NCBI GenBank assembly: GCA_009379995.1
Contig: WHSR01000003.1
Span: 10,324-74,323, forward strand
Origin: Streptosporangiales bacterium
GTDB lineage: Bacteria; Actinomycetota; Actinomycetes; Streptosporangiales; WHSR01
DNA: 64,000 nt
Direction: 5' to 3'
How positions within the stretch are numbered: the first letter of the stretch is position 1; the number at the start of each line of letters is the position of its first letter. The translations under genes and the position numbers were made by a program. The notes beneath the pieces were generated by a model. It searched no databases and was not told the origin of the DNA. It worked only from the letters and a program-made list of their open reading frames with translations. This document shows positions 8,506 to 32,946 of this stretch, in pieces.

Positions 8506-9081
8506 CTACCCGGCGGCGGGCTCCGGCTTGCGGGCGGCGAACCGTACGGCCCCGGGCACGTGGGTGACCTTCACCTCGGTGAAGCCGGCGGACTCCAGCC
8601 GGTGCTGCAGCGTCGCCGGATCGACGACGGTCATGGTGTCGAAGAGGTGGATGAGCCGAAACCGCAGGCTGGGCTGGCTGTCGGTGCCGGCGAAAACGCC
8701 GCCCGGGCGGAGCACCCGGCAGGCCTCGGCGAAGAGCTTGTCCTGCAGAGAGGGGTTCGGAACGTGGTGGAGCATCGTGAAGCAGACCACGCCGCTGAAG
8801 CTGTCCTCGGGGAACGGCATGGCCGCCCCGTCGCCGTGGGTCACCCGTACCTTGTCGGCGAACTGGTCGCGGAGCCGCTCGACGAACCCCTCGTCGATCT
8901 CCAGCGCCGAAAGGTTCGGCACCTGTTCCGCCAGCACACGGGTCGTCACGCCCAGCCCCGGACCCACCTCCAGGACATCGGTGCCCAGGTCGACGTTCTT
9001 CAGCCCCCACGGCAGTAGCGTGCTCTCCACCCGCGCCGCCCATTTCCGGGAGGCACAGTAGCGGCGATGGAACCGGTTCAT
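8506..9081 (-). CDS. class I SAM-dependent methyltransferase
   Basis: Starts at MNRFHRRYC (ATG 9079-9081). The SAM-binding motif is VLEVGPGLGVTT, followed by LRPGGVFAG. Confidence 0.85.
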   Translation of the reverse strand: MNRFHRRYCASRKWAARVESTLLPWGLKNVDLGTDVLEVGPGLGVTTRVLAEQVPNLSALEIDEGFVERLRDQFADKVRVTHGDGAAMPFPEDSFSGVVCFTMLHHVPNPSLQDKLFAEACRVLRPGGVFAGTDSQPSLRFRLIHLFDTMTVVDPATLQHRLESAGFTEVKVTHVPGAVRFAARKPEPAAG

Positions 9082-21753: not shown

Positions 21754-21768
21754 TTTCACCTGGTGAAA
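21754..21768. promoter_or_regulatory. 15-bp perfect palindrome TTTCACCtGGTGAAA in the AACS/IclR divergent spacer (candidate IclR operator)
   Basis: Seven-bp arms are perfect around one central base. It is the only strong dyad in the 94-bp spacer and overlaps the alternative GTG (21763) of the regulator. Confidence 0.4.
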
Positions 21769-21795
21769 TTGAACCCTTGGTCGCGAGAGGTCCCG

Positions 21796-22608
21796 ATGCG
21801 TCACTACAAGGTCAAACCGATCCACGCGCTGTCCCGGGGGCTGGAGGTTCTCCAGGCTCTGCAGCAGATGCGCGCCGCGAGCCTTCACGACCTGCACCAG
21901 GTGACCGGCATCCCGAAGAGCACGCTGACCCGCATCCTCTACACCTGCCACCGCCAAGGTCTGGTCTGGCAGCGCATGGCCGACGGGGCGTTCCTGCCCA
22001 GCCACACCGTGGCGCGGCGGGTCAGGCTCGAGGACGCCAGCTGGCTGGCCGAGATCAGCTCGCCGGTGCTGGAAGGGCTTTGCGAGCGGGTGATGTGGCC
22101 GTCGGTGCTGTCGGTCCCCCGTCTCGACTACATGGAGGTCGTCGAGACCAACAGCCCACGCGCCTACTTCGACGAGGTACCGGTGAAGCCGATCGGCTTT
22201 CGCGCCAACATGCTGCGCTCCGCGTCCGGCCGGGCCTACCTCGCGTTCTGCCCCGACCAGGAGCGCGATGCCGTACTGCGCCGCCTTCGCGAGCGCGACG
22301 TACCGGGCCACGAGCTCGCGCACCACGACGAGACGATCCGACGGCTGGTCGAGGCGACCCGCAGGCGTGGGTACAGCGTACGGGCGCCGGACTTCGGCGG
22401 CGACTACGCGAAGACCCGCGACGAGGTCGACGACGGCCGCAACTCCATCGCCATGCCGATCCGGGTGGGCGGGCACGTGCTCGGCTGCATCAACCTCACC
22501 TGGCGAAGGAAGCAGATGACCCCCGCACAGATGGCCGAGCGCCATCTCGAGGACCTGGGCGACGCCGTGCGAACCGTGGAGAAGCGTGCCGCGGAGGCAC
22601 TGGGTTAA
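21796..22608 (+). CDS. IclR-family transcriptional regulator
   Basis: MRHYKVKPIHALSRGLEVLQALQQMRAASLHDLHQVTGIPKSTLTRIL is the wHTH. A C-terminal IclR effector domain follows (GRAYLAFCP...SIAMPIRVGGHVLGCINL). It is divergent from the carboxylase operon. Confidence 0.85.
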   Translation: MRHYKVKPIHALSRGLEVLQALQQMRAASLHDLHQVTGIPKSTLTRILYTCHRQGLVWQRMADGAFLPSHTVARRVRLEDASWLAEISSPVLEGLCERVMWPSVLSVPRLDYMEVVETNSPRAYFDEVPVKPIGFRANMLRSASGRAYLAFCPDQERDAVLRRLRERDVPGHELAHHDETIRRLVEATRRRGYSVRAPDFGGDYAKTRDEVDDGRNSIAMPIRVGGHVLGCINLTWRRKQMTPAQMAERHLEDLGDAVRTVEKRAAEALG

Positions 22609-22654
22609 CCGGTTCGGTAAGCCATCTTCCTCCCCAGAAGATCAATTCAGGGTA

Positions 22655-22668
22655 TAGGAGCGCTCCCG
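22655..22668. promoter_or_regulatory. CebR/CelR-type operator, box 1 (TAGGAGCGCTCCCG)
   Basis: Matches the known 14-bp palindrome TGGGAGCGCTCCCA at 12 of 14 positions. It lies upstream of the GH5-ABC-LacI operon. Confidence 0.6.
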
Positions 22669-22685
22669 GAGGTGGGAGAACGTTA

Positions 22686-22699
22686 TGAGAGCGCTCCCA
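22686..22699. promoter_or_regulatory. CebR/CelR-type operator, box 2 (TGAGAGCGCTCCCA)
   Basis: Matches TGGGAGCGCTCCCA at 13 of 14 positions. It is 31 bp centre-to-centre from box 1 and about 90 bp upstream of the GH5 ATG. Confidence 0.65.
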
Positions 22700-22789
22700 T
22701 CCCAGGTTGACGCCGTGTTTCCGCTCATGTTTCCCTGACTCCACTTATTCGGTTCAGCTAGCGGGCGACCAGCTGGGAAGAGAGCCGCG

Positions 22790-24742
22790 ATGCGGGACTC
22801 GGAGATGTTCCTGATCGAGGGCCGGCCGTGGCTCGGCGCCAACTTCTGGTCGCGTACCGGCGGGCCGCTGATGTGGCGCCGCTACCACCCGGAGGTGGTC
22901 CGGGGCGAGCTCCGGGTGCTGCGCGAGCACGGCATGAACCTCACCCGGTCCTTCTTCTACTGGCCAGACTTCATGCCCGCGCCCGACCGGGTGGACGAGG
23001 AACTCGTCGGCCGCTTCACCGATTTCCTCGACGGCCACGTCGAGGAGGGCATTCAAACCATCCCCACGTTCATCGTCGGCCACATGTCCGGCGAGAACTG
23101 GGACCCGGCCTGGCGACAGGGCCGCGAACTCTACGGCGACGTATGGATGGTCGCCCGGCAGGCGTGGTTCGTCCGCGAGCTGACCGCCCGGTTCCGTGAC
23201 CACGCCGCCGTCGCCGGCTGGCTGATCTCCAACGAGATGCCGATCTACGGGGAGCCGGCACCGAGCGAGCGGGTGACGCCGTGGGCGCAGCTCATGGTCC
23301 AGGCGGTGCGCGCCGCCGGGGCCACCCAGCCGGTGTCGATCGGTGACGGCGCGTGGGGAGTCGAGATCACCGGCGTGGACAACGGGTTCTCCGTCCGCGA
23401 CCTTGCCGAGATCGTCGACTTCCTCGGACCGCACCTCTACCCGGTTGAGGACGACCCGGTCCGCCAAAACCTGGCGGCGGCGTTCGTCTGCGAGCTGGCG
23501 GGCTTCGCCGGCAGGCCGGTCGTACTCGAGGAGTTCGGTCTCACCAGCAACTTCGCCTCCGCGGAGAATGCCCGCCACTACTACCGGCAGGTGCTGCACA
23601 ACACGCTGCTGGCCGGGGCGCCCGGCTGGATCGCCTGGAACAACACCGACTACGACGACCTGTTCGAGCAGGACCCCTACCGGCACCACGCCTTCGAGAT
23701 GCACTTCGGGCTGACCGACGCCTCCGGGACGCCCAAGCCGCAGCTGGCCGAGGTGCGCGCCTTCGCCGAGCTCCTGGGGCGGATCGACTTCCCGTCCTGC
23801 TCGCGCCCGCCGGCCGAGGTCGCCCTGGTCGTGCCGTCGTACCTGGAGTGCGCCTATCCCTTCACCCAGCCGGCCGAGCGCACGTTCGTCTTCGCCGCCC
23901 TGCGGCAGGCCTACATCGCCGCCAGAGAGGCCGACCTCCCGCTCCGGATGCCGCGCGAGCGCGACGGGCTCGCCCCCGGCTTCCGGCTGTACCTGGTGCC
24001 GTCGACCAAGCAGCTCACCGCGCCGGCCTGGCGGGACCTGGAGCGGTTCGCCCACGACGGCGCGGTCGTCTACGTGTCGTACTGCCCCGGCCCGAGCAAG
24101 GCGCTGCGCGGGCCGTGGTACGCGGACCTCAACGGGATGTTCGGGGTCGAGCACGAGCTCGCCTACGGGCTCGTCGACCCCATCGAGGACGAGGAGGTGG
24201 TCGTCACCTTCGTACGCGCCTTCGGATCGATCCCGGAGGGCACCCAGCTGACGTTCCGCGCCGGGGGCAACGAGCACTCCCGGGCGTTCCTGCCGGTGCG
24301 CCCGGCGGGCGCCGAGGTCGTCGCCGTGGACGGGCACGACCGCCCGGTGCTGCTCGAACGGGCCGCCGGCGCCGGCCGGGTCGTCCTGTGCACGTACCCG
24401 CTGGAGCACATGGCGGCCGTCACCCCCCGGGTCAATCCCGAGCCGACGTACCGCATCTACGACGCGCTCGCCGAGGTCGCGGGCGTCGGCCGGCCGGTGA
24501 CGACCGAGGATCCGCGCGTCTTCGCCGCCGAGCTGCGCCACCGCGACGGCCGGCGCTTCGTCTGGTTGGTCAGCCAGGCACCCGAAGAGGTCACCGTCAA
24601 GCCGATGGCGGACGGACGCCTGAACAGCTTGCAGACCGGGCAGCCGGTGGACGAGGTCGACCTGGGCGCCTACGGCGTCCAGGTGCTGCGGCTGCTGCCC
24701 GGTAACGAAGAAGAAGGAGAATCGCAATGCGAAACCGGCTGA
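22790..24742 (+). CDS. cytoplasmic clan GH-A (GH5-like) glycoside hydrolase with C-terminal extension
   Basis: 650 aa with no signal peptide. NLTRSFFYW; the acid/base motif is WLISNEMP; the nucleophile motif is PVVLEEFG; then WIAWNNTDYDD. The C-terminal ~300 aa are of unclear fold. Confidence 0.75.
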   Translation: MRDSEMFLIEGRPWLGANFWSRTGGPLMWRRYHPEVVRGELRVLREHGMNLTRSFFYWPDFMPAPDRVDEELVGRFTDFLDGHVEEGIQTIPTFIVGHMSGENWDPAWRQGRELYGDVWMVARQAWFVRELTARFRDHAAVAGWLISNEMPIYGEPAPSERVTPWAQLMVQAVRAAGATQPVSIGDGAWGVEITGVDNGFSVRDLAEIVDFLGPHLYPVEDDPVRQNLAAAFVCELAGFAGRPVVLEEFGLTSNFASAENARHYYRQVLHNTLLAGAPGWIAWNNTDYDDLFEQDPYRHHAFEMHFGLTDASGTPKPQLAEVRAFAELLGRIDFPSCSRPPAEVALVVPSYLECAYPFTQPAERTFVFAALRQAYIAAREADLPLRMPRERDGLAPGFRLYLVPSTKQLTAPAWRDLERFAHDGAVVYVSYCPGPSKALRGPWYADLNGMFGVEHELAYGLVDPIEDEEVVVTFVRAFGSIPEGTQLTFRAGGNEHSRAFLPVRPAGAEVVAVDGHDRPVLLERAAGAGRVVLCTYPLEHMAAVTPRVNPEPTYRIYDALAEVAGVGRPVTTEDPRVFAAELRHRDGRRFVWLVSQAPEEVTVKPMADGRLNSLQTGQPVDEVDLGAYGVQVLRLLPGNEEEGESQCETG

Positions 24743-26472
24743 GGTTTCTGATCCCATTCTTTGCTGCCGCCTTAGTGGCAGCGGCCTGCACCGGAGGGGG
24801 CGGCGCCGGAGGGGGCGGCCAGGCCGGCGGTCCGCCCGGCAGCTACCCGCGGAGCCAGACCCTCTACACCAGCGGAACACAGTGGGCCCCGCCCTCGAAC
24901 TGGAATCCCGTCATGGACTGGGAGTACGTCACCGGGACCGAGGGGCTGGTCTACGAGCCGCTGTTCCTCTACGACCCGCTGAAGAACGAATACAGGCCCT
25001 GGCTGGCCGAAAGCGGGGACTGGACGAGCGACAACGTGTACGAGGTGAAGCTCCGCGAGGGCGTCAACTGGAGCGACGGCGAGCCCTTCACGGCCGAGGA
25101 CGTCGTCTTCACCTTCGAGCTCGGCAAGTTCGAGTCCGTCCCCTACCACAACCTGTGGGACTGGCTGCAGAAGGCCGAGGCGGTCGACGAGCGCACCGTG
25201 CGGTTCACCTTCTCCGAGCCCCTTTACCAGGAATGGTCGATCCACCTCTACAACAGGCCGATGGTTCCAAAGCACCTCTGGCAGGGCCGGTCGGAGAAGG
25301 AGGTGGCCAGCGGGGCCAACAAGAATCCCGTCGGCACCGGCGCCTACCTGTACCAGACCCACAGCCAGGACCGGATGGTCTGGGTGAAAAACGAGGAGTG
25401 GTGGGCGCAGGACGGGCTCGACCTGGACGTCAAGCCCAAGTACATCGTCGACATCGTCAACTCCAGCAACGAGGCGGCTCTCGGCCAGGTCCTGCAGGGC
25501 GGCATCGACCTGAGCAACAACTTCCTGCCCGGGATCGCGACGCTGGTGAAGGGCGGCTACCAACTCCACACCTACTACTCCGGCCCGCCGTACATGCTGT
25601 CGGCCAACACGGCGTGGCTGGTCCTGAACACGACGAAGAAGCCGATGGACGACGCGGAGTTCCGGAGGGCGATGGCACACGCCGTCGACGTAAACAAGAT
25701 CGTCAATACTGTCTACGGCCAGATCGTCTCCGCGGCCAGCCCCACCGGACTGCTCCCGGCCTGGGACGAGTACGTCGACAAGTCGGTCGTCGAGGAGATG
25801 GGATTCACCTACGATCCGGCTCGCGCCAAGAAGATCCTGGCCGATGCCGGCTACCGGGACACCAACGGTGACCGCCTCGTCGAGGCGCCCGACGGCTCCA
25901 AGATCGAGCTCTCCCTCATCGTTCCCAGCGGGTGGACCGACTGGGAGGAGTCCATCCGGGTGATCGCGGAAAGCGCCAAGGCCGCGGGCGTCAACGTCAG
26001 GCCGGAGTTCCCGGACTACGACGCCCTCGTGGACGCGCGGGACAGCGGCGAATACGACATGCTCATCAACAACGAGAAGCAGCTCAGCAGTACGCCGTGG
26101 GAGTACTACGACTACATGTTCCGGATGCCGGTCCAAGAAACGCAGACCACCGCCAACTTCGGGCGGTACGAGAACCAGAAGGCCTGGGACCTCGTGCAGC
26201 AGCTGGACAAGACCCCTGTCGACGATGTCGAGGGTATGAAGAAGGTCGCCTCCCAGCTGCAGCGCATTCAGCTCACCGAGATGCCGGTGATCCCGCTCTG
26301 GTACAACGGCCTATGGGCGCAGGCCAACAACACGGTCTGGACGAACTGGCCGTCGTCGGCGAAGGATACGCCCAACTATCTTCCGGCCACCTGGCGGAAC
26401 TACTACGAGATGGGCGGCGTCCTCGTGCTCACCGAACTGGAGCCGGCGCCGCAACAGGAGGAAGAACAGTAA
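24727..26472 (+). CDS. ABC transporter substrate-binding lipoprotein (family 5, Dpp/Opp-type)
   Basis: 581 aa. The lipobox is LVAAACTGGG. The size and motifs are typical of a family-5 SBP (YEPLFLYDP, DGEPFTAEDVVFTF). GAAGGAGA lies before the ATG. The gene overlaps the GH5 stop by 16 nt. Confidence 0.9.
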   Translation: MRNRLRFLIPFFAAALVAAACTGGGGAGGGGQAGGPPGSYPRSQTLYTSGTQWAPPSNWNPVMDWEYVTGTEGLVYEPLFLYDPLKNEYRPWLAESGDWTSDNVYEVKLREGVNWSDGEPFTAEDVVFTFELGKFESVPYHNLWDWLQKAEAVDERTVRFTFSEPLYQEWSIHLYNRPMVPKHLWQGRSEKEVASGANKNPVGTGAYLYQTHSQDRMVWVKNEEWWAQDGLDLDVKPKYIVDIVNSSNEAALGQVLQGGIDLSNNFLPGIATLVKGGYQLHTYYSGPPYMLSANTAWLVLNTTKKPMDDAEFRRAMAHAVDVNKIVNTVYGQIVSAASPTGLLPAWDEYVDKSVVEEMGFTYDPARAKKILADAGYRDTNGDRLVEAPDGSKIELSLIVPSGWTDWEESIRVIAESAKAAGVNVRPEFPDYDALVDARDSGEYDMLINNEKQLSSTPWEYYDYMFRMPVQETQTTANFGRYENQKAWDLVQQLDKTPVDDVEGMKKVASQLQRIQLTEMPVIPLWYNGLWAQANNTVWTNWPSSAKDTPNYLPATWRNYYEMGGVLVLTELEPAPQQEEEQ

Positions 26473-26478
26473 TGAGCC

Positions 26479-26521
26479 GTCACCATTCCTCTCCCGCGTG
26501 AGGTGGGAGGGGAATGGTGAC
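26479..26521 (+). terminator. strong intercistronic stem-loop between the SBP and permease genes (17-bp stem, 16/17 paired)
   Basis: GTCACCATTCCTCTCCC (26479-26495), loop gcgtgaggt, GGGAGGGGAATGGTGAC (26505-26521). It lies just after the SBP stop. This is a candidate partial terminator or mRNA-stabilising element. Confidence 0.55.
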
Positions 26522-26561
26522 CCTGCCATGATCCCGCCGACGATGAGACGAGGAGGCGCGC

Positions 26562-27557
26562 GTGCGACGGTACTTCGGGAGGAAGTTTCTCATCTACGCC
26601 CTCACGTTCTTCGTCGCGGTGACCATCAACTTCATGATCCCGCGGCTCATGCCCGGCGATCCCGTCCGCAGCATGGTGGCGAGGGCCGGGATGCAGACTC
26701 CCGAGGCCGCCGCGACCATGCAGGAGTACTACACCAGGATATTCGGGCTCGACGTGCCCATCTGGCAGCAGTATCTCAATTTCTGGGCCGCCCTCCTGCG
26801 CGGTGATCTCGGCATCAGCATATGGCTGTTTCCACAGCCGGTCACGGGCGTCATCATGCGGGCGGTTCCGTATACCCTCGCCCTGCTGATCCCGGCCATC
26901 CTGCTGAGCTGGTTCGCCGGAAACAAGTTCGGCGCGTTCGCGGCACGCCGTAAATGGCTCGACAACACGATACTGCCGGTGGGATATGTGCTGACGGCGA
27001 CGCCCTACATGTGGCTGGCGATTTTGCTGGCGTGGGCACTGGGCATCATCGCCGGCATCTTCCCGATCGCCGGCGGATACAGCTTCTCGCTGGCGCCCAC
27101 GTTGTCGTGGACCTTCGTCGGCAGCCTGCTGGCGCATTGGTTCCTGCCGTTCGTCTCGCTCTTCCTTGTCTTCTTCGGCGGGTGGGCGATCGGGATGAGA
27201 AACATGATCATCTACGAGCTCGAGGCCGATTACTCTCACTACCTCCAGGCGCTCGGGGCGCCGCAGCGGCTGGTGCGGAAGTACGCGTTCCGAAACGCGG
27301 CCCTCCCCCAGATCACCGGGCTGGCGCTGCAGCTCGGTGTGATAGTGGCGGGCGCCGTGGTCACCGAGATCGTCTTCTCCTATCCAGGGCTCGGGCATCT
27401 GATCCTCAAGGCGATCGAGAACCAGGACTTCTTCCTGCTTCAGGGCGCCTTCCTGTTCATCGTGATCGGCGTGCTGCTGGCCAACTTCATCATCGACATC
27501 GTGTACGTGCTGGTCGATCCACGGACCCGGACCGGGATGGGAGGTGGCTCCGCATGA
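26562..27557 (+). CDS. ABC transporter permease (DppB/OppB-like)
   Basis: 331 aa, multi-TM. N-terminus MRRYFGRKFLIYALTFFVAVTINFMIPRLMPGDP; EAA-loop region YLQALGAPQRLVRKYAFRNA. Confidence 0.9.
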   Translation: MRRYFGRKFLIYALTFFVAVTINFMIPRLMPGDPVRSMVARAGMQTPEAAATMQEYYTRIFGLDVPIWQQYLNFWAALLRGDLGISIWLFPQPVTGVIMRAVPYTLALLIPAILLSWFAGNKFGAFAARRKWLDNTILPVGYVLTATPYMWLAILLAWALGIIAGIFPIAGGYSFSLAPTLSWTFVGSLLAHWFLPFVSLFLVFFGGWAIGMRNMIIYELEADYSHYLQALGAPQRLVRKYAFRNAALPQITGLALQLGVIVAGAVVTEIVFSYPGLGHLILKAIENQDFFLLQGAFLFIVIGVLLANFIIDIVYVLVDPRTRTGMGGGSA

Positions 27558-28453
27558 CGGTGCCCAGCGTGGACCAAGGCGTCGACACGAAGGTCGACCG
27601 CGTGCCGGGCGCGCGGCGCGAGGCCCTCTACTTCGCGCTGCGGAACAAGAAGCTCGTCGGCGGGCTGACCGTCGTCCTGCTGTTCCTCGTCCTCGCCGTC
27701 GTCGGCCCGATGCTCACGGCTCACGGCCCGCGTGAGTACGTCGGTCCGCCCATGCAGCCGCCCTCGTCCGAGTATTGGTTCGGGACCACCACGTTCGGGC
27801 AGGACGTCTTCGCCCAGTTCGTGTACGGCCTCCGGGCAACCTTTCGGGTGGGGATCCTCGGCGGCGGGTTGACCGCCATCATCGGGATGTTCGTCGGGTT
27901 CACCGCCGGCTACCGTGGCGGGCTCGTCGACGAGACACTCAACATGATCACGAACGTGGTCCTCGTCCTCCCGGTCCTGGCGGTCCTGCTGATCATCTCG
28001 GCCTACCTCCGGGTCCGTAGCGTCGAGGTGCAGGCCCTCATCATCGGGCTCTTCTCCTGGCCGTGGGTGGCACGAGCCATCAGGGCGCAGACGTTCTCGC
28101 TGCGCTCCCGGGACTTCGTCGACCTGGCGAGGCTGAGCGGGGTGCCGACCCGGAGGATCATCTTCGGAGAGATCGCTCCGAACATGGCCTCGTATTTGTT
28201 TATGGTCTTCATTCTTCTGTTCGGCGGAGCGGTCCTGTTCGCGGCGACGCTCGACTTCATCGGGCTCGGTCCGACGGAGGGGATCTCGCTCGGCCTGATG
28301 CTGAACAACTCCGTCAAATGGAGCGCTCTTCAACTCGGCATGTCGTGGTGGTTCATTCCGCCGGGCATCGGAATCACTGCGATTGTCGGCGCATTCTACA
28401 TCATGAATGTCGGTCTCGACGAGGTCTTCAACCCCAAGCTGAGAGAGATGTGA
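27554..28453 (+). CDS. ABC transporter permease (DppC/OppC-like)
   Basis: ATG 27554 overlaps the upstream stop (ATGA). 299 aa. Motifs: HWFGTT-like YWFGTTTFGQDVF and FVDLARLSGVPTRRIIFGEIAPN. The upstream 200 aa of the track ORF are off-frame. Confidence 0.9.
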   Translation: MTVPSVDQGVDTKVDRVPGARREALYFALRNKKLVGGLTVVLLFLVLAVVGPMLTAHGPREYVGPPMQPPSSEYWFGTTTFGQDVFAQFVYGLRATFRVGILGGGLTAIIGMFVGFTAGYRGGLVDETLNMITNVVLVLPVLAVLLIISAYLRVRSVEVQALIIGLFSWPWVARAIRAQTFSLRSRDFVDLARLSGVPTRRIIFGEIAPNMASYLFMVFILLFGGAVLFAATLDFIGLGPTEGISLGLMLNNSVKWSALQLGMSWWFIPPGIGITAIVGAFYIMNVGLDEVFNPKLREM

Positions 28454-29406
28454 GCAAGGTGAGCCTACGGGTGGCGGGCCTCAAGGTTCACTACCGGACG
28501 CTGCGGGGCGACGTAAAGGCGCTGGACGACGTCACCTTCGCCGTCGCCGACGGCGAGACCATGGGCCTGGCCGGGGAGTCCGGCTGCGGCAAGACCACGC
28601 TCGGCAAGAGCTTGATCCGTCTGGACGGCCGCATGCGACACGTCGACGGCACCGTGGAGCTGGACGACGAGGAGCTTCCCATCGGTGACACGGCGAGGAT
28701 GAACGACTTCAGGTTCCGGGAAGTCTTCATCATCCCGCAGTACGCCATGAGCGCCATGAACCCCACGCGCAAGATCGGCAAAATGACCAAGGAGCTCCTC
28801 GAGTCCAGAGGCGTCCGCTTCGAGACGGTACGGACCGAGCTGAAGCGCCGACTCGAGCTGGTGGGGCTCGCACACGACGTACTGGACAGATACCCGATCG
28901 AGCTCTCCGGTGGAATGAAGCAACGAATGGTGATGGTTCTCTCCACGCTGCTCAATCCCTCGCTCCTCGTCGCCGACGAGGTGACCTCGGCGCTCGACGT
29001 TTCGACGCAGCGGGCCGTCGCGGAGACCCTTGTGGACTTTCGGGACCGCGGTTTCGTACGGAGCATGATCGTCATCACCCATGACGTCTCGCTCGTCTAC
29101 CAGATCGCGGACAGCATCATGGTCATGTATGCCGGGAAACTGGCCGAGAAGGCACCCACCGACGTGATAGTCGACTCTCCCCGGCATCCGTATACGCAGC
29201 TCCTGATCTCCTCACTGCCCGAGGTCGGCGTCAAATACGCCGATAAGAGGCTGACGGGCATACCCGGTAGTCCTCCGTCCCTCCTTGACCCCCCGGCCGG
29301 GTGCCGGTTCAGAGACCGGTGCCCTCTTGCGTTTGACAAGTGTTCGGAAGAACCCCCCTTCGTCGAGGTTGAGCATGGCCACTACGTCGCTTGCTGGAAA
29401 GCCTGA
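28450..29406 (+). CDS. ABC transporter ATP-binding protein (DppD/OppD-like)
   Basis: GTG 28450 overlaps the upstream stop. Walker A is GESGCGKTT, the signature is LSGGMKQR, Walker B is LLVADEVTSALD. The C-terminal oligopeptide-type extension is PPAGCRFRDRCP. Confidence 0.9.
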   Translation: MSKVSLRVAGLKVHYRTLRGDVKALDDVTFAVADGETMGLAGESGCGKTTLGKSLIRLDGRMRHVDGTVELDDEELPIGDTARMNDFRFREVFIIPQYAMSAMNPTRKIGKMTKELLESRGVRFETVRTELKRRLELVGLAHDVLDRYPIELSGGMKQRMVMVLSTLLNPSLLVADEVTSALDVSTQRAVAETLVDFRDRGFVRSMIVITHDVSLVYQIADSIMVMYAGKLAEKAPTDVIVDSPRHPYTQLLISSLPEVGVKYADKRLTGIPGSPPSLLDPPAGCRFRDRCPLAFDKCSEEPPFVEVEHGHYVACWKA

Positions 29407-30376
29407 AGCCGAGAGATGCTGTACGGTCGACCGGGTCTCCATGGTCTACAAGATCGGCGCCTTCGGTGGCACGGACCTGCCCGCGGTGCGTGATGTGAGC
29501 TTCGAGGTGCGGGCCGGCGAGGTGGTCTCGCTCATCGGTGAGAGCGGCAGCGGGAAGACCACCCTCGGGAAGATGATCCTGCGCCTTTGCCCGATTACCG
29601 GCGAAACGATCACCGTCGACGGCGTCGACATCTCCACCTTCAAGAGAAGGCGGTTGAAGACGTACTACCGAAGCGTGCAGGGGGTCTTCCAGGACCCATT
29701 CAGCTCCTACAACCCCATCTTCAAGGCCGACCGGGTCTTCAGCATGATCAAGGACGAGTACTTCGCCGAGGTAAACGCCGCGGAATGGCGGCGCAAGGTA
29801 GCCGCTTCGCTGGAGGCCGTGCGGCTCAGCCCGGACGAGGTGCTCAACAAGTATCCCCACCAGCTCAGCGGCGGCCAGCTTCAGCGCATCCTCATCGCTC
29901 GCGCGCTGTTGCTCGACATCCGACTCCTCGTCGCCGATGAGATCATCAGCATGCTCGACGCCTCCACCCGCATCGACGTGCTGAACCTGCTCGCCGACCT
30001 GAAGGCACAGGGTCTGGGCATCCTGTTCATCACCCACGATCTGTCGCTGGGCAACTACGTCAGCGACAAGACGGTGATTCTTCGCCGGGGCCGAATCGTT
30101 GAAATGGGCGCTCCAGATAGGGTGTTCGGCAACCCACTTCACCCGTACACGAAGAGTCTGCTGACCTCCGTACCCCAGCTTCACAGGAAATGGGAACGGG
30201 TGGAGGCCGAGCTCGCGGCAGGGCGCGCGGGACTCACCGGCCGGTGTATCTATCACGAGCGATACCCGAACGGAGATGGGCCGGTCGGCCTCGACGCCGA
30301 ACGACCAACGCTCGCGGAAGCAGAGGATGACCACTTCGTGGCATGCTTCCAGGCCGACGGAGAGGAAACGTGCTGA
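29375..30376 (+). CDS. ABC transporter ATP-binding protein (DppF/OppF-like)
   Basis: Walker A is GESGSGKTT, the signature is LSGGQLQR, Walker B is LLVADEIISMLD. I chose ATG 29375 (32-nt overlap with the upstream gene) because the conserved N-terminal strand CCTVDRVSMVY lies upstream of the next Met. Confidence 0.85.
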   Translation: MATTSLAGKPEAERCCTVDRVSMVYKIGAFGGTDLPAVRDVSFEVRAGEVVSLIGESGSGKTTLGKMILRLCPITGETITVDGVDISTFKRRRLKTYYRSVQGVFQDPFSSYNPIFKADRVFSMIKDEYFAEVNAAEWRRKVAASLEAVRLSPDEVLNKYPHQLSGGQLQRILIARALLLDIRLLVADEIISMLDASTRIDVLNLLADLKAQGLGILFITHDLSLGNYVSDKTVILRRGRIVEMGAPDRVFGNPLHPYTKSLLTSVPQLHRKWERVEAELAAGRAGLTGRCIYHERYPNGDGPVGLDAERPTLAEAEDDHFVACFQADGEETC

Positions 30377-31467
30377 CCGCCGATGGGTCGGCCGAGGGAG
30401 CGCGGGTGACGAAGAGACCGACGATCGCCGACATAGCCCAACGGGCGGGCCTGTCCAAGGGTGCGGTGTCGTACGCCCTCAACGGCCAGCCCGGGGTGTC
30501 GGAGTCGACCCGGCGGCGCGTCCTCGAGTTGGCCACCGAGATGGGCTGGCGGCCCAACAGCGCGGCCCGGGCGCTGTCCGGTGCCCGCACCGGAACCCTG
30601 GGGCTCGTGTTGCCGCGTCCGGCGACGCTGCTCGGCGTGGAGCCCTTCTTCATGAAGCTCATCGCCGGCATCGAGAACGCGCTCGCCGCGCGCTCCACGG
30701 CGCTGCTCCTCCAGGTAGCCCCCGACCACGACGCGGAGGCTGCCGCCTACCGCCGCTGGTGGGCGGAGCGTCGGGTCGACGGTATCTTCCTCGTCGACCT
30801 GCGGGTCGAGGACGGGCGCATACGAGTAGTGGAGGAGCTGGGCCTGCCGGCCGTGGTGATTGGCGGCCCGGGCCACCACGGCAGGTTGCCCAGCGTGTGG
30901 ACCGACGACGCGGCCGCCATGGTCATGGTCGTCGAGTACCTGGCCGCGCTGGGCCACCGCCACATCGCCCGGGTTGCCGGCCTGCCCGGTCTGCTGCACA
31001 CCGAGCTACGCGGCCGGGCGTTCGGAGACGTCGCGGCAACGCTCGGGCTGGAGTGGTCGGGGACGGTCACCACCGACTACTCGGCCGACCAGGGCGCCCA
31101 GGCCACCCGGCGGCTGCTCAGCGCTTCTCCCGCCCCCCAGTCCTCCGGACCCACCCCCCGTGCCGCGACCCGTCCGACCGCGATCCTGTACGACAACGAC
31201 GTGATGGCGGTCGCCGGAACCTCGGTCGCGCACGAGATGGGCGTGGACGTCCCCGGCGATCTGTCGATCATGGCCTGGGACGACTCGGTGCTGTGCGAGA
31301 TCATCCACCCGCCGCTCACCGCGCTCAGCCGCGACATCATGGCCTACGGCGCGCACGCCGCCGAGCGCCTCCTGGAGCTGCTGGACGGCAACGCGGTCAC
31401 CGACTTCCAGGACGACATGCCCCGACTGGTCATTCGCGGCAGCACCGCCCGGCCACGCAGCCCCTGA
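30370..31467 (+). CDS. LacI-family transcriptional regulator (candidate CebR-like repressor of this operon)
   Basis: The HTH is KRPTIADIAQRAGLSKGAVSYALNG. A periplasmic-binding-fold effector domain follows. GTG 30370 lies behind GGAGAGGAA; GTG 30406 is an alternative start. Confidence 0.85.
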   Translation: MLTADGSAEGARVTKRPTIADIAQRAGLSKGAVSYALNGQPGVSESTRRRVLELATEMGWRPNSAARALSGARTGTLGLVLPRPATLLGVEPFFMKLIAGIENALAARSTALLLQVAPDHDAEAAAYRRWWAERRVDGIFLVDLRVEDGRIRVVEELGLPAVVIGGPGHHGRLPSVWTDDAAAMVMVVEYLAALGHRHIARVAGLPGLLHTELRGRAFGDVAATLGLEWSGTVTTDYSADQGAQATRRLLSASPAPQSSGPTPRAATRPTAILYDNDVMAVAGTSVAHEMGVDVPGDLSIMAWDDSVLCEIIHPPLTALSRDIMAYGAHAAERLLELLDGNAVTDFQDDMPRLVIRGSTARPRSP

Positions 31468-31497
31468 CCGGCCGTGATCCCCTGCTGGCGACTTCGG

Positions 31498-32214
31498 TCA
31501 GCCCGAGCCGTCGGGTGTGGCCGGGATCGGCTGTGGGCTCGTCGTCGGCGGTGCAGGTTCCTCGGGGCTCGTCGGCTCCGGTGTGGCGGGTGCGCTCTCG
31601 GGCTCCGGCACGGTTTCCGTGACCGTGGTGGCCGGGGCAGGGGCGGGCTCGGAGTCGTCTCCGCCTCCGCCGACGAGCCCGCCGACGGAGGTACTCCCGC
31701 CGCGGTTCTTGCCGTAGGCCATCGTCGCCACCTTGTCGCCGGCGAGAGCCTCGACCAAGGTGATCGTTCCCAGGGCGAGCACGAAGACGACGGCGACAGC
31801 GACCGCCACCCCCCGCCATCGGGTCGCCCGGAGCGCCGCGGCGAGCCGCGCGGCGATGCCGTCGCTTGCCGTCTCGGTTTCCGGTTGCTGTGTGCCCTCG
31901 GCCGGGGACGCGGCCGGCCCACGCGATTCTTGGGCGGGCGTGTCGGCGTCGCCGGCGTGGGTTTGTCCTGGCTCCTGTCGGTGTCGGTAGACGACGGTGA
32001 CCCGGCGGACCTTCTCCCTGGTCTGCTGAAGGTAATGACTGTAGACCGCGGCACAGATGGGGATCGCGGCGCTGGCGATGGCCCCACCGATGAGGGTGCC
32101 CGTCGCACCGAAAAAGGACGCGCCCACCGCGACGGACATCGACGCGAGAGCGCTGGCGGCGATCTGCATGGGGTTCACCTCGATGCGGCGCGGCTTGTCG
32201 ACCATTACAGTCAA
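31498..32214 (-). CDS. membrane protein of unknown function with Pro/Thr/Glu-rich C-terminal tail
   Basis: 238 aa. Two hydrophobic segments: IAASALASMSVAVGASFFGATGTLIGGAIASAAIPICAAVY and WRGVAVAVAVVFVLALGTITLV. Third positions are G/C-rich. The start is uncertain (TTG 32214 or ATG 32205). Confidence 0.55.
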   Translation of the reverse strand: MTVMVDKPRRIEVNPMQIAASALASMSVAVGASFFGATGTLIGGAIASAAIPICAAVYSHYLQQTREKVRRVTVVYRHRQEPGQTHAGDADTPAQESRGPAASPAEGTQQPETETASDGIAARLAAALRATRWRGVAVAVAVVFVLALGTITLVEALAGDKVATMAYGKNRGGSTSVGGLVGGGGDDSEPAPAPATTVTETVPEPESAPATPEPTSPEEPAPPTTSPQPIPATPDGSG

Positions 32215-32362
32215 CCCCCGGACTCGACAGGTGTGCTGGCACGGCCCCTATGGGTCGGCTCTTTGTCATACCCAGCCGATGCCATGGTGATATGCCTCGT
32301 TTGGTTAGGGCGATATTGGGTACAAGATTTTTTACTTACGCGAAGGAAGAGGTCAGGTAGCC

Positions 32363-32686
32363 ATGGCCGAATCTGAACGCGAGCGACACGAGGCAGAAGC
32401 CAAGACGCGCGCCCAGGACAAGGCCAGCGAGGTCAAGGCCAAGGCGCAGGACGCGGCGGGCAAGCTCGCCCAGAGCGCTCGCTCCAAGGGCGCACAGGCC
32501 GCCGACCAGGCCAGCGACCTCGGCCGCAAGGCCCGTGAGGCCGCCGCCGAAGCAGAGCCGGGGCGTGCGCGTCGAGTGGCCGCACCGTTGGTGGTCGTCG
32601 CCGGTATCGCTGTCGCGGCGGCCGGCTGGGTCAGGCGGCGCAGGCGCAAGCAGCGCGGGCTGCTTCGGCGGCTCACCAAGCGGTAG
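32363..32686 (+). CDS. small tail-anchored protein (charged Ala/Lys/Gln-rich helix + C-terminal TM)
   Basis: 107 aa. MAESERERHEAEAKTRAQDKASEVKAKAQDAAGKLAQSARSKG...; the TM segment is VAAPLVVVAGIAVAAAGWV, followed by RRRRRK. GGAAGAGG lies before the ATG. The upstream region is unusually AT-rich. Confidence 0.55.
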   Translation: MAESERERHEAEAKTRAQDKASEVKAKAQDAAGKLAQSARSKGAQAADQASDLGRKAREAAAEAEPGRARRVAAPLVVVAGIAVAAAGWVRRRRRKQRGLLRRLTKR

Positions 32687-32946
32687 GCGAGCCCAGGATC
32701 CAGCTCAACTCGTCGGCCGGCGCCAGGCGTGGGAGCGTTCCTCGGGCTGTTTCGTCGTGGTCGGTTTCCTCATCAGCGGCCTGGCCAGCGGCGCCGAATT
32801 CGACAACCTGGCCGGCGAGTGCACCCCCATGAAGCTCCGGCCGCTGAGTGGTGGCTGAGCGCGGGGCCAGGAGACCCTGTGACGCGTGTCGAGCCGCCGA
32901 CCCGGGTGCGCGGGGCCTGGCCGTCAAGGAACTTTTCTTAGTCTGT

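Follow-up and report, generated by a model that had tools for sequence, protein, structure and literature searches.

In a 64,000-nucleotide stretch of contig WHSR01000003.1 from a Streptosporangiales bacterium (the window), two imperfect copies of the 14-bp CebR/CelR-type palindrome TGGGAGCGCTCCCA precede seven genes that all lie on the plus strand and are joined by overlaps of 4-32 nt or gaps of 29-89 nt. They encode a glycoside hydrolase of family GH5, a lipoprotein solute-binding protein (SBP), two permeases, two ATPases and, at the end, a LacI-family regulator (Table 1). A preliminary description of this DNA had proposed a seven-gene operon and had named the function of each gene by family, and the Pfam and NCBIfam domains agree. 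It had also placed the transporter among the Dpp/Opp-type (PepT) ATP-binding cassette (ABC) importers, which is borne out by a family-5 SBP, OppB/C-type permeases and two ATPases with oligo_HPY domains. The start of the regulator gene is revised. The earlier choice, ATG 30343, does open the longest open reading frame (ORF), but GTG 30406 is preferred, with GAGGGAG upstream and in agreement with the N-termini of orthologues.

Table 1. Features of the operon and of its upstream region (positions in the window)
Feature	Coordinates	Strand	Basis and remarks
Site A, distal candidate operator, GGTTAACCGGTTCGGT	22603-22618	.	core AACCGGTT intact; overlaps stop codon of upstream IclR gene
CebR/CelR-type box 1, TAGGAGCGCTCCCG	22655-22668	.	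12/14; mismatches at positions 2 and 14
CebR/CelR-type box 2, TGAGAGCGCTCCCA	22686-22699	.	13/14; mismatch at position 3
Putative -35 hexamer TTGACG	22707-22712	+	inferred; alignment with closest metagenome loci
Site B, proximal candidate operator, ACTTATTCGGTTCAGC	22743-22758	.	between putative promoter and start codon
GH5 enzyme, three-domain, cytoplasmic, 650 aa	22790-24742	+	Pfam Cellulase; ATG start; N-terminus without signal-like features
Family-5 lipoprotein SBP, 581 aa	24727-26472	+	SBP_bac_5; lipobox LVAAAC read from sequence
Stem-loop, 19 bp, perfect, directly 3' of SBP stop codon	26479-26521	+	folding
OppB/DppB-type permease, 331 aa	26562-27557	+	BPD_transp_1; NCBIfam Opp/Nik B-type models below cut-offs
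OppC/DppC-type permease, 299 aa	27554-28453	+	BPD_transp_1 and OppC_N; ATG; 4-nt overlap with preceding gene
OppD/DppD-type ATPase	28450-29406	+	ABC_tran and C-terminal oligo_HPY; GTG start in GTGA overlap with permease stop
OppF/DppF-type ATPase	29375-30376	+	ABC_tran and C-terminal oligo_HPY
LacI-family regulator, 353 aa from GTG	30406-31467	+	Pfam LacI and Peripla_BP_3

Counted from the ATG at 22790, box 1 starts at -135 and box 2 at -104, a distance of 31 bp; their positions, their spacing and their degree of match were all reproduced as first described. With near-consensus copies of TGGGAGCGCTCCCA in its promoter region, the operon resembles a member of a CebR/CelR regulon. We counted matches to the CebR consensus in the whole genome (5.8 Mb, 69.75% G+C) and compared them with a first-order Markov expectation. 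Copies with no, one and two mismatches number 3, 4 and 24, against 0.066, 2.8 and 53 expected; perfect boxes are strongly enriched genome-wide and imperfect ones are not. At least two matches with at most two mismatches were present in 18 of 100 shuffles of the window. Boxes 1 and 2 form the only pair less than 50 bp apart in the genome; six simulations of half a genome each yielded none, and the match counts lead to an estimate of 0.006-0.02 pairs per genome. The boxes are beyond chance as a pair, not singly. They sit in a short non-coding stretch directly before the glycan operon, and this intergenic region is unique in the genome by blastn. We considered that the box segment had been copied from another promoter and rejected this, the same search of the genome having returned only chance matches of 12-18 nt.

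The regulator encoded by the last gene of the operon is neither the closest match of CelR/CebR nor highly identical to it. Its match to CelR has an expect value (E) of 3.7e-31, and its best match in the PDB is a different LacI protein, 4o5a (E 7.5e-81). The genome has about 15 LacI paralogues, and one of them alone is close to CelR: the LacI gene just after a GH48 gene on contig C96, whose product matches PDB 5YSZ, that is CelR (PMC12748958), with an E of 2.6e-114. The operon LacI is 30% identical to this CelR orthologue. Because of its weak score against 5YSZ, its closer match to 4o5a and its low identity to the C96 protein, we conclude that it is not CebR. The recognition helices point the same way. 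That of the C96 protein is GVGRGTVSRVINGS, identical to 5YSZ, and the operon LacI has GLSKGAVSYALNGQ in its place (SKGAVSYALN versus GRGTVSRVIN). The Tyr of the operon LacI stands where CelR and E. coli LacI have Arg (LacI numbering).

We collected related loci, 80 from genomes (Actinophytocola, Actinoallomurus, Streptomyces, Nonomuraea, Sorangium and others) and 79 from metagenomes. After four with too little upstream sequence and two with a missing 5' end had been dropped, 153 were usable. In 61 of the 80 genome loci an orthologue of the operon LacI (44-74% identity) adjoins the GH5 gene, independently of transporter type, and the orthologues of Actinophytocola have a recognition helix identical to that of the window protein. 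Upstream of these relatives recurs a palindrome with the consensus ACT[G/T/A]AACCGGTT[C/T]AGT and the operator form ACTGAACCGGTTCAGT. Allowing up to two mismatches, the 12-mer TGAACCGGTTCA reaches a density of 1.46 per kb in the 300-nt regions before the GH5 and LacI genes, 20 times the 0.073 per kb found elsewhere. In 97 of the 153 loci the best upstream 16-mer scored higher than all 153 coding controls with a position weight matrix (PWM) trained on the same regions. Two such sites, A and B, flank the CebR-type boxes in the window. With the 16-mer PWM they score 14.2 and 19.2 bits, respectively, against a coding-control maximum of 6.4, and site B is the top PWM match of the entire 5.8-Mb genome. 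When the PWM was built from 72 genome loci of other clades only, sites B and A (16.0 and 14.3 bits) still ranked first and second in the 64-kb window, the next match reaching 10.4. Site B retains ACTTAnnCGGTTCAGT in all 12 of the closest metagenome loci, and distal sites homologous to site A are present in relatives.

Operator and regulator also vary together. Where the recognition helix ends in VSYALN, position 4 of the half-site is G in 65 cases, T in 33 and A in none (n=98); where it ends in VSFALN, this position is mostly A (47/80, 32/40 and 15/26). The window regulator belongs to the Tyr type, and position 4 of its four half-sites reads T, G, T and G. As the rows are related sequences, we take this covariation as supportive and not as statistical proof. 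Taken with the conservation of the sites, it makes it very probable that the operon LacI binds sites A and B. A PWM scan of the genome gave 77 matches of at least 12 bits, and the only other strong non-coding one, C99:28335, lies between a gene for a TauE-like membrane protein and its neighbour. We judged it a chance match, and a window match at 9067 was likewise set aside as a regulon member, being inside a gene. The operon LacI was taken as a local regulator.

Upstream of the operon, an IclR-family regulator gene (21763-22608) ends within site A, and its stop codon TAA belongs to TTAACCGGTT. In the closest relatives a conserved TTGACC is followed 35 nt later by the proximal site. The corresponding spacing in the window, from TTGACG to site B, is 36 nt, and box 2 ends 7 nt upstream of this putative -35 hexamer. 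In five of the closest metagenome loci (L103-L105, L110 and L114) an inverted repeat, GTTTCTC-N2-GAGAAAC or a variant of it, precedes the conserved TTGACC by about 15-35 nt. It occupies the place of box 2 of the window and may be a site for a different regulator.

CebR and CelR control cellulase genes and cebEFG-bglC, and the same genome contains both a CelR regulator and an evident regulon of this kind. One of its three perfect boxes lies upstream of genes for a CUT1 SBP, two permeases and a GH1 beta-glucosidase, in the classical cebEFG-bglC layout, and another lies between divergent GH10-CBM2 and GH48 genes on C96. The latter box lies in a plant-cell-wall cluster (locus L003, 1-12100). On one side of it the GH10-CBM2 gene is followed by a secreted GH5 endo-mannanase and a BNR/sortilin-repeat protein that we take to be GH74-like; on the other side come GH48 and the CelR orthologue, then GH12 and GH6, with a one-mismatch box before the GH6 gene. 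The endo-mannanase has a signal peptide and matches 8GF3 with an E of 7.8e-118, and its gene starts 11 nt past the GH10-CBM2 gene, downstream of the perfect box. There are also weak GH26 matches on contig C99. The third perfect box lies at the start of a LacI paralogue on contig C77 (locus L001, 3885-8400) that is 41% identical to the CelR orthologue; beside it are some 3.4 kb without an ORF of high GC3 and without an Rfam match. The earlier view that an Opp-type importer stands here in place of the usual CUT1 transporter therefore has to be given up. Because the CUT1 cebEFG-bglC set is present as well, the operon is an added system and not a replacement. A link between mannan and CebR boxes has a precedent in Streptomyces sp. 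SirexAA-E, for which a mannan-hydrolysing GH5-CBM2 enzyme (SACTE_2347) with a perfect CebR box and 5-fold induction on cellulose is described (PMC3538285). SsCebR is reported to respond to cellobiose and to mannobiose (PMC12772271), and gain of CebR sites has been put forward as an evolutionary route linked to cellulolytic ability (PMC4898821).

We turned to the likely substrate of the operon. Over residues 40-572 the SBP matches the Thermotoga maritima proteins 4PFT and 1VR5 with E values of 8e-157 and 1.8e-156 (526 bits), and 4PFU, an entry named "Mannoside ABC transport system, sugar-binding protein", with 1.7e-145. Cellobiose-type (1e-61, 212 bits) and chitin-oligosaccharide proteins (1e-53) follow at a distance, and peptide or nickel SBPs have E values of at least 1e-24 (at most 90 bits), so that the window protein is much nearer to TM1223/TM1226 than to the latter. 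Mannose, mannobiose and mannopentaose are among the ligands given for TM_1223 and TM_1226 (PMC8050422). The GH5 enzyme has its best PDB match in 7bob, Op5Man5 (E 9.3e-26), which is described as a homotrimeric GH5 exo-beta-1,4-mannosidase with a GH42-like fold, a GH42-type trimer and the catalytic residues E156 and E281 (PMC8233224). These two residues align with N148-E149 (acid/base) and E248 (nucleophile) of the window enzyme, which are invariant in 16 homologues. An AlphaFold2 (AF2) model of the enzyme (pLDDT 82, pTM 0.87) has the three-domain, GH42-like architecture, and the top Foldseek match of the model is again 7BOB, with a TM-score of 0.78 along the entire protein (about 580 columns), followed by GH42 beta-galactosidases and a GH164 beta-mannosidase. 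From alignment and model, the enzyme is probably an exo-beta-1,4-mannosidase of the Op5Man5 type. Among 8000 scored proteins, 2605 were related to it at E<=1e-10; they are mostly actinobacterial, and the top 120 have at least 64% identity. Together, the binding protein and the enzyme make a function in manno-oligosaccharide use likely. Of the earlier proposal of cello- or manno-oligosaccharides, the second part is thus strengthened by the two matches to mannoside-related proteins, and the first has become less likely.

The module is widespread, and its transporter varies. An Opp-type system accompanies the GH5/LacI module in 29 of the 80 genome loci: in 8 it is the same Thermotoga-like system as in the window, and in 21 it belongs to a second Opp-type lineage whose SBP is 25-28% identical. 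Opp/PepT-type importers of glycosides are, moreover, recognised in the literature (PMC13543919), and the description of the window's importer as of an atypical class does not fit these frequencies. In Actinoallomurus a CUT1 system lies between the LacI and GH5 genes, and other genome loci, Sorangium among them, have only the LacI-GH5 pair within the stretch examined. The pairs of the myxobacterium Sorangium (L021-L030, L035, L040 and L042) are 65-67% (GH) and 57-59% (LacI) identical to the window proteins, and their ACTGAACCGATTAAGT sites lie between the two genes. Their occurrence there suggests a transfer of the module across phyla.

Three other explanations have to be weighed, two of them concerned with regulation. 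The preliminary description had the operon LacI act as a CebR-type repressor on the two TGGGAGCGCTCCCA-like boxes and so autoregulate a cello- or manno-oligosaccharide module. Its appeal is easily seen, as the LacI gene ends an operon that is preceded by two LacI-type palindromes and the genes next to a LacI-family regulator are usually its targets. We nevertheless regard it as very improbable. The operon LacI has diverged far from the CelR orthologue, its helix differs at the specificity positions, and the same helix is found in orthologues from operons with AACCGGTT-type palindromes, where intact CebR boxes are absent. Operator and helix covary, and the two sites of this type in the window are precisely the two best matches of the held-out PWM. 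A different possibility is that the CebR-like boxes are chance matches and that the operon LacI controls the genes through sites A and B alone. This is unlikely but has to be taken seriously, and several observations weigh with it against our reading that the boxes matter. Each box alone is within chance expectation, boxes with one or two mismatches show no genomic excess, and shuffled windows yield two matches often enough, so that a function can be argued from pairing and location only. The 300 nt preceding the GH5 or LacI gene hold no intact CebR box in any of the 153 usable loci; in two of them a match with two mismatches and a broken core, TGGGAGG[GA][TA]TCCCA, is present. The 12 closest metagenome loci (70-80% protein identity) contain no CebR box within 500 bp at up to three mismatches, and none was found in the eight loci with the identical seven-gene order. 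Among same-order relatives, both motifs are missing from the 400 nt before the GH5 gene in L093, L094 and L096. The boxes are thus not conserved at orthologous promoters, and we regard them as a lineage-specific addition because the related loci have no intact copy. Both boxes also lie upstream of the putative -35 hexamer, not in the classic position for steric repression, and the remaining CelR sites of the genome are single and perfect, in contrast to the tandem and imperfect pair here; no second box was found within 80 bp of those sites at up to four mismatches. A consensus sigma-70 scan of 22500-22850 found no promoter, and the -10 element is poor, so the promoter is placed by homology alone. 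Closer relatives help little. In four public DNA runs that we compared, 22603-22703 is covered by the window's own strain alone, and the genome is the only one of its family among 41 genomes searched; our conclusions draw on neither of two genomes flagged as unpublished. In contigs from these runs a relative of about 88% identity keeps CTTACTCGGTTCAGC at the position of site B, and one of about 94%, from another study, keeps the IclR-GH5 neighbourhood with a 213-nt intergenic stretch that does not align at 80%. The boxes have no footprinting support because these relatives, at about 88-94% nucleotide identity, are unreadable in this stretch. Of the runs X1, X2, X5 and X6, viewed over 22300-25300, two show the 88% relative at several times the depth of the window's own strain. 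Against chance stand the closeness of the two boxes, unmatched in the genome and in the simulations, the central GAGCGCTC kept in both, and their spacing, which from its geometry would correspond to about three helical turns. They also fall into one of the few non-coding stretches, before an operon related to hemicellulose; the CelR regulon of this genome already holds a mannanase operon, and the boxed enzyme of SirexAA-E sets a precedent (PMC3538285). On balance it seems somewhat probable that the CebR boxes are functional and read by CelR.

The third explanation leaves the regulation aside and concerns the sugar: the operon could serve another beta-linked substrate, such as cellodextrins, mixed oligosaccharides derived from glucomannan, or Man-beta-1,4-GlcNAc from N-glycans. 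Several points tell for it and so against manno-oligosaccharides. The ligands given for TM_1223 and TM_1226 also include cellobiose, laminaribiose and xylobiose (PMC8050422), and because of this cello- or mixed oligosaccharides have to be kept in mind. The specificity of the enzyme is uncertain because its similarity to Op5Man5 is remote, with an identity of only about 21-22% over the structural alignment. GH5_18 enzymes, which are beta-mannosidases acting on Man-beta-1,4-GlcNAc of N-glycans, were also among its PDB matches (E 1e-8 to 1e-5), and the CebR boxes themselves hint at a link with cellobiose. However, a canonical CUT1 cebEFG-bglC set preceded by a perfect box is already present in the genome, the best matches of the SBP and of the enzyme are both mannoside-specific entries, and relatives of the enzyme are annotated as endo-1,4-beta-mannosidase or beta-mannosidase, which is annotation only. 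We therefore hold another substrate to be rather improbable and continue with manno-oligosaccharides.

We lean slightly towards the following explanation as a whole: a manno-oligosaccharide operon under its own AACCGGTT-binding LacI that is probably also tied to the CelR regulon by a lineage-specific pair of boxes. The locus then fits a coherent scheme of three steps. The secreted endo-mannanase, encoded elsewhere in the genome, would release beta-1,4-manno-oligosaccharides from plant mannan; import would fall to the lipoprotein SBP together with the Opp-type ABC system; and in the cytoplasm the GH5 exo-beta-mannosidase, probably a trimer, would trim the imported chains down to mannose. Two regulatory inputs would converge on the promoter. 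In one, the operon LacI would occupy the two ACTGAACCGGTTCAGT-like sites A and B and presumably be released by a manno-oligosaccharide; this would be the ancestral, conserved control of the module. In the other, the CebR boxes between sites A and B would be read in trans by the CelR of C96, or possibly by the paralogue of C77, and would tie the operon to the cellulose/hemicellulose regulon. More specifically, the arrangement could be a recently arisen two-repressor AND gate, in which the LacI sites A and B bracket the promoter and a new tandem CebR pair adds control by cellobiose through CelR, but we put this forward only tentatively and consider it doubtful. Such a gate, if true, would allow full expression only when both cello- and manno-oligosaccharides are present, the glucomannan signature of plant cell walls. 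Since the related operons have no boxes, the window would then illustrate, in nature, the capture of an operon by the CebR regulon.

Three points seem undescribed in the literature searched: the operator of this LacI subfamily, a characterised representative of the GH family from actinobacteria, and an importer operon at which CebR boxes are combined with a local repressor. To our knowledge the LacI subfamily of the operon and the GH family are uncharacterised, and published text on 4O5A, on AACCGGTT in connection with LacI and on Op5Man5 revealed no characterised member. The operon is nonetheless a sensible and fairly ordinary variation on known sugar-operon control, and our results leave the known workings of such systems unchanged. 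They hold a lesson for annotation, in that a LacI gene near a LacI-type palindrome need not bind that palindrome. The ACTGAACCGGTTCAGT-like operator is a testable prediction for a widespread, uncharacterised LacI subfamily that travels with an uncharacterised three-domain GH5 family in Actinomycetota and Sorangium. Our results also suggest that manno-oligosaccharides are what many "peptide ABC transporters" annotated beside these genes import. Should the CebR boxes be functional, uptake of hemicellulose would have been wired into the cellulose regulon by site gain.

Two further features belong to the operon and its surroundings. The region 26465-26565, which includes the stem-loop behind the SBP gene, folds at -49.2 kcal/mol (z -4.76), and none of 200 shuffles folds as well; the stem-loop is probably the usual intercistronic hairpin by which the SBP mRNA is favoured relative to the permease part. 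The stretch of about 1.4 kb that follows the LacI gene (31467-32886) contains nothing but overlapping ORFs, on both strands, and three terminator-like hairpins.

Among known systems, the importer most resembles the mannoside transporter of Thermotoga maritima (TM1223/TM1226; structures 1VR5, 4PFT/4PFY and 4PFU/4PFW/5HM4; TC 3.A.1.5). The SBPs are alike over their mature length, and both systems have the five-component Opp-type layout with oligo_HPY ATPases. The window system differs in coming from another phylum, in having a lipoprotein as its SBP and in its association with a GH5 enzyme of the Op5Man5 type and with a LacI regulator, and its ligands are predicted. The enzyme shares with Op5Man5 of Opitutaceae bacterium TAV5 (7BOB; PMC8233224) the GH5 barrel, both aligned Glu residues and two extra domains that complete the GH42-like fold, and its N-terminus without signal-like features is in keeping with this likeness. 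It is set apart by the low identity and by its large, mostly actinobacterial family, and its trimeric state and exo-specificity are putative. As to regulation, GlyR2 of Clostridium thermocellum is likewise described as a LacI-family repressor of mannan genes that responds to mannobiose (review PMC10766802). The likeness is at the level of the family, the window operator ACTGAACCGGTTCAGT and its effector being predictions.

The closest regulatory comparison is with the CebR/CelR regulons of Streptomyces griseus, S. reticuli and S. sp. SirexAA-E and with CelR of Thermobifida fusca. The genome shares with them the same 14-bp palindrome and a CelR orthologue with the same helix, and it has perfect boxes at cebEFG-bglC-like and cellulase genes; a mannan-hydrolysing GH5-CBM2 enzyme is boxed in SirexAA-E, too (PMC3538285). 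The operon departs from these regulons in its target, a cytoplasmic mannosidase with its importer and not a secreted enzyme. Its imperfect boxes form a tandem before the putative -35 hexamer and are not conserved in related operons, and the operon also has an unrelated LacI of its own, with its own predicted operators.

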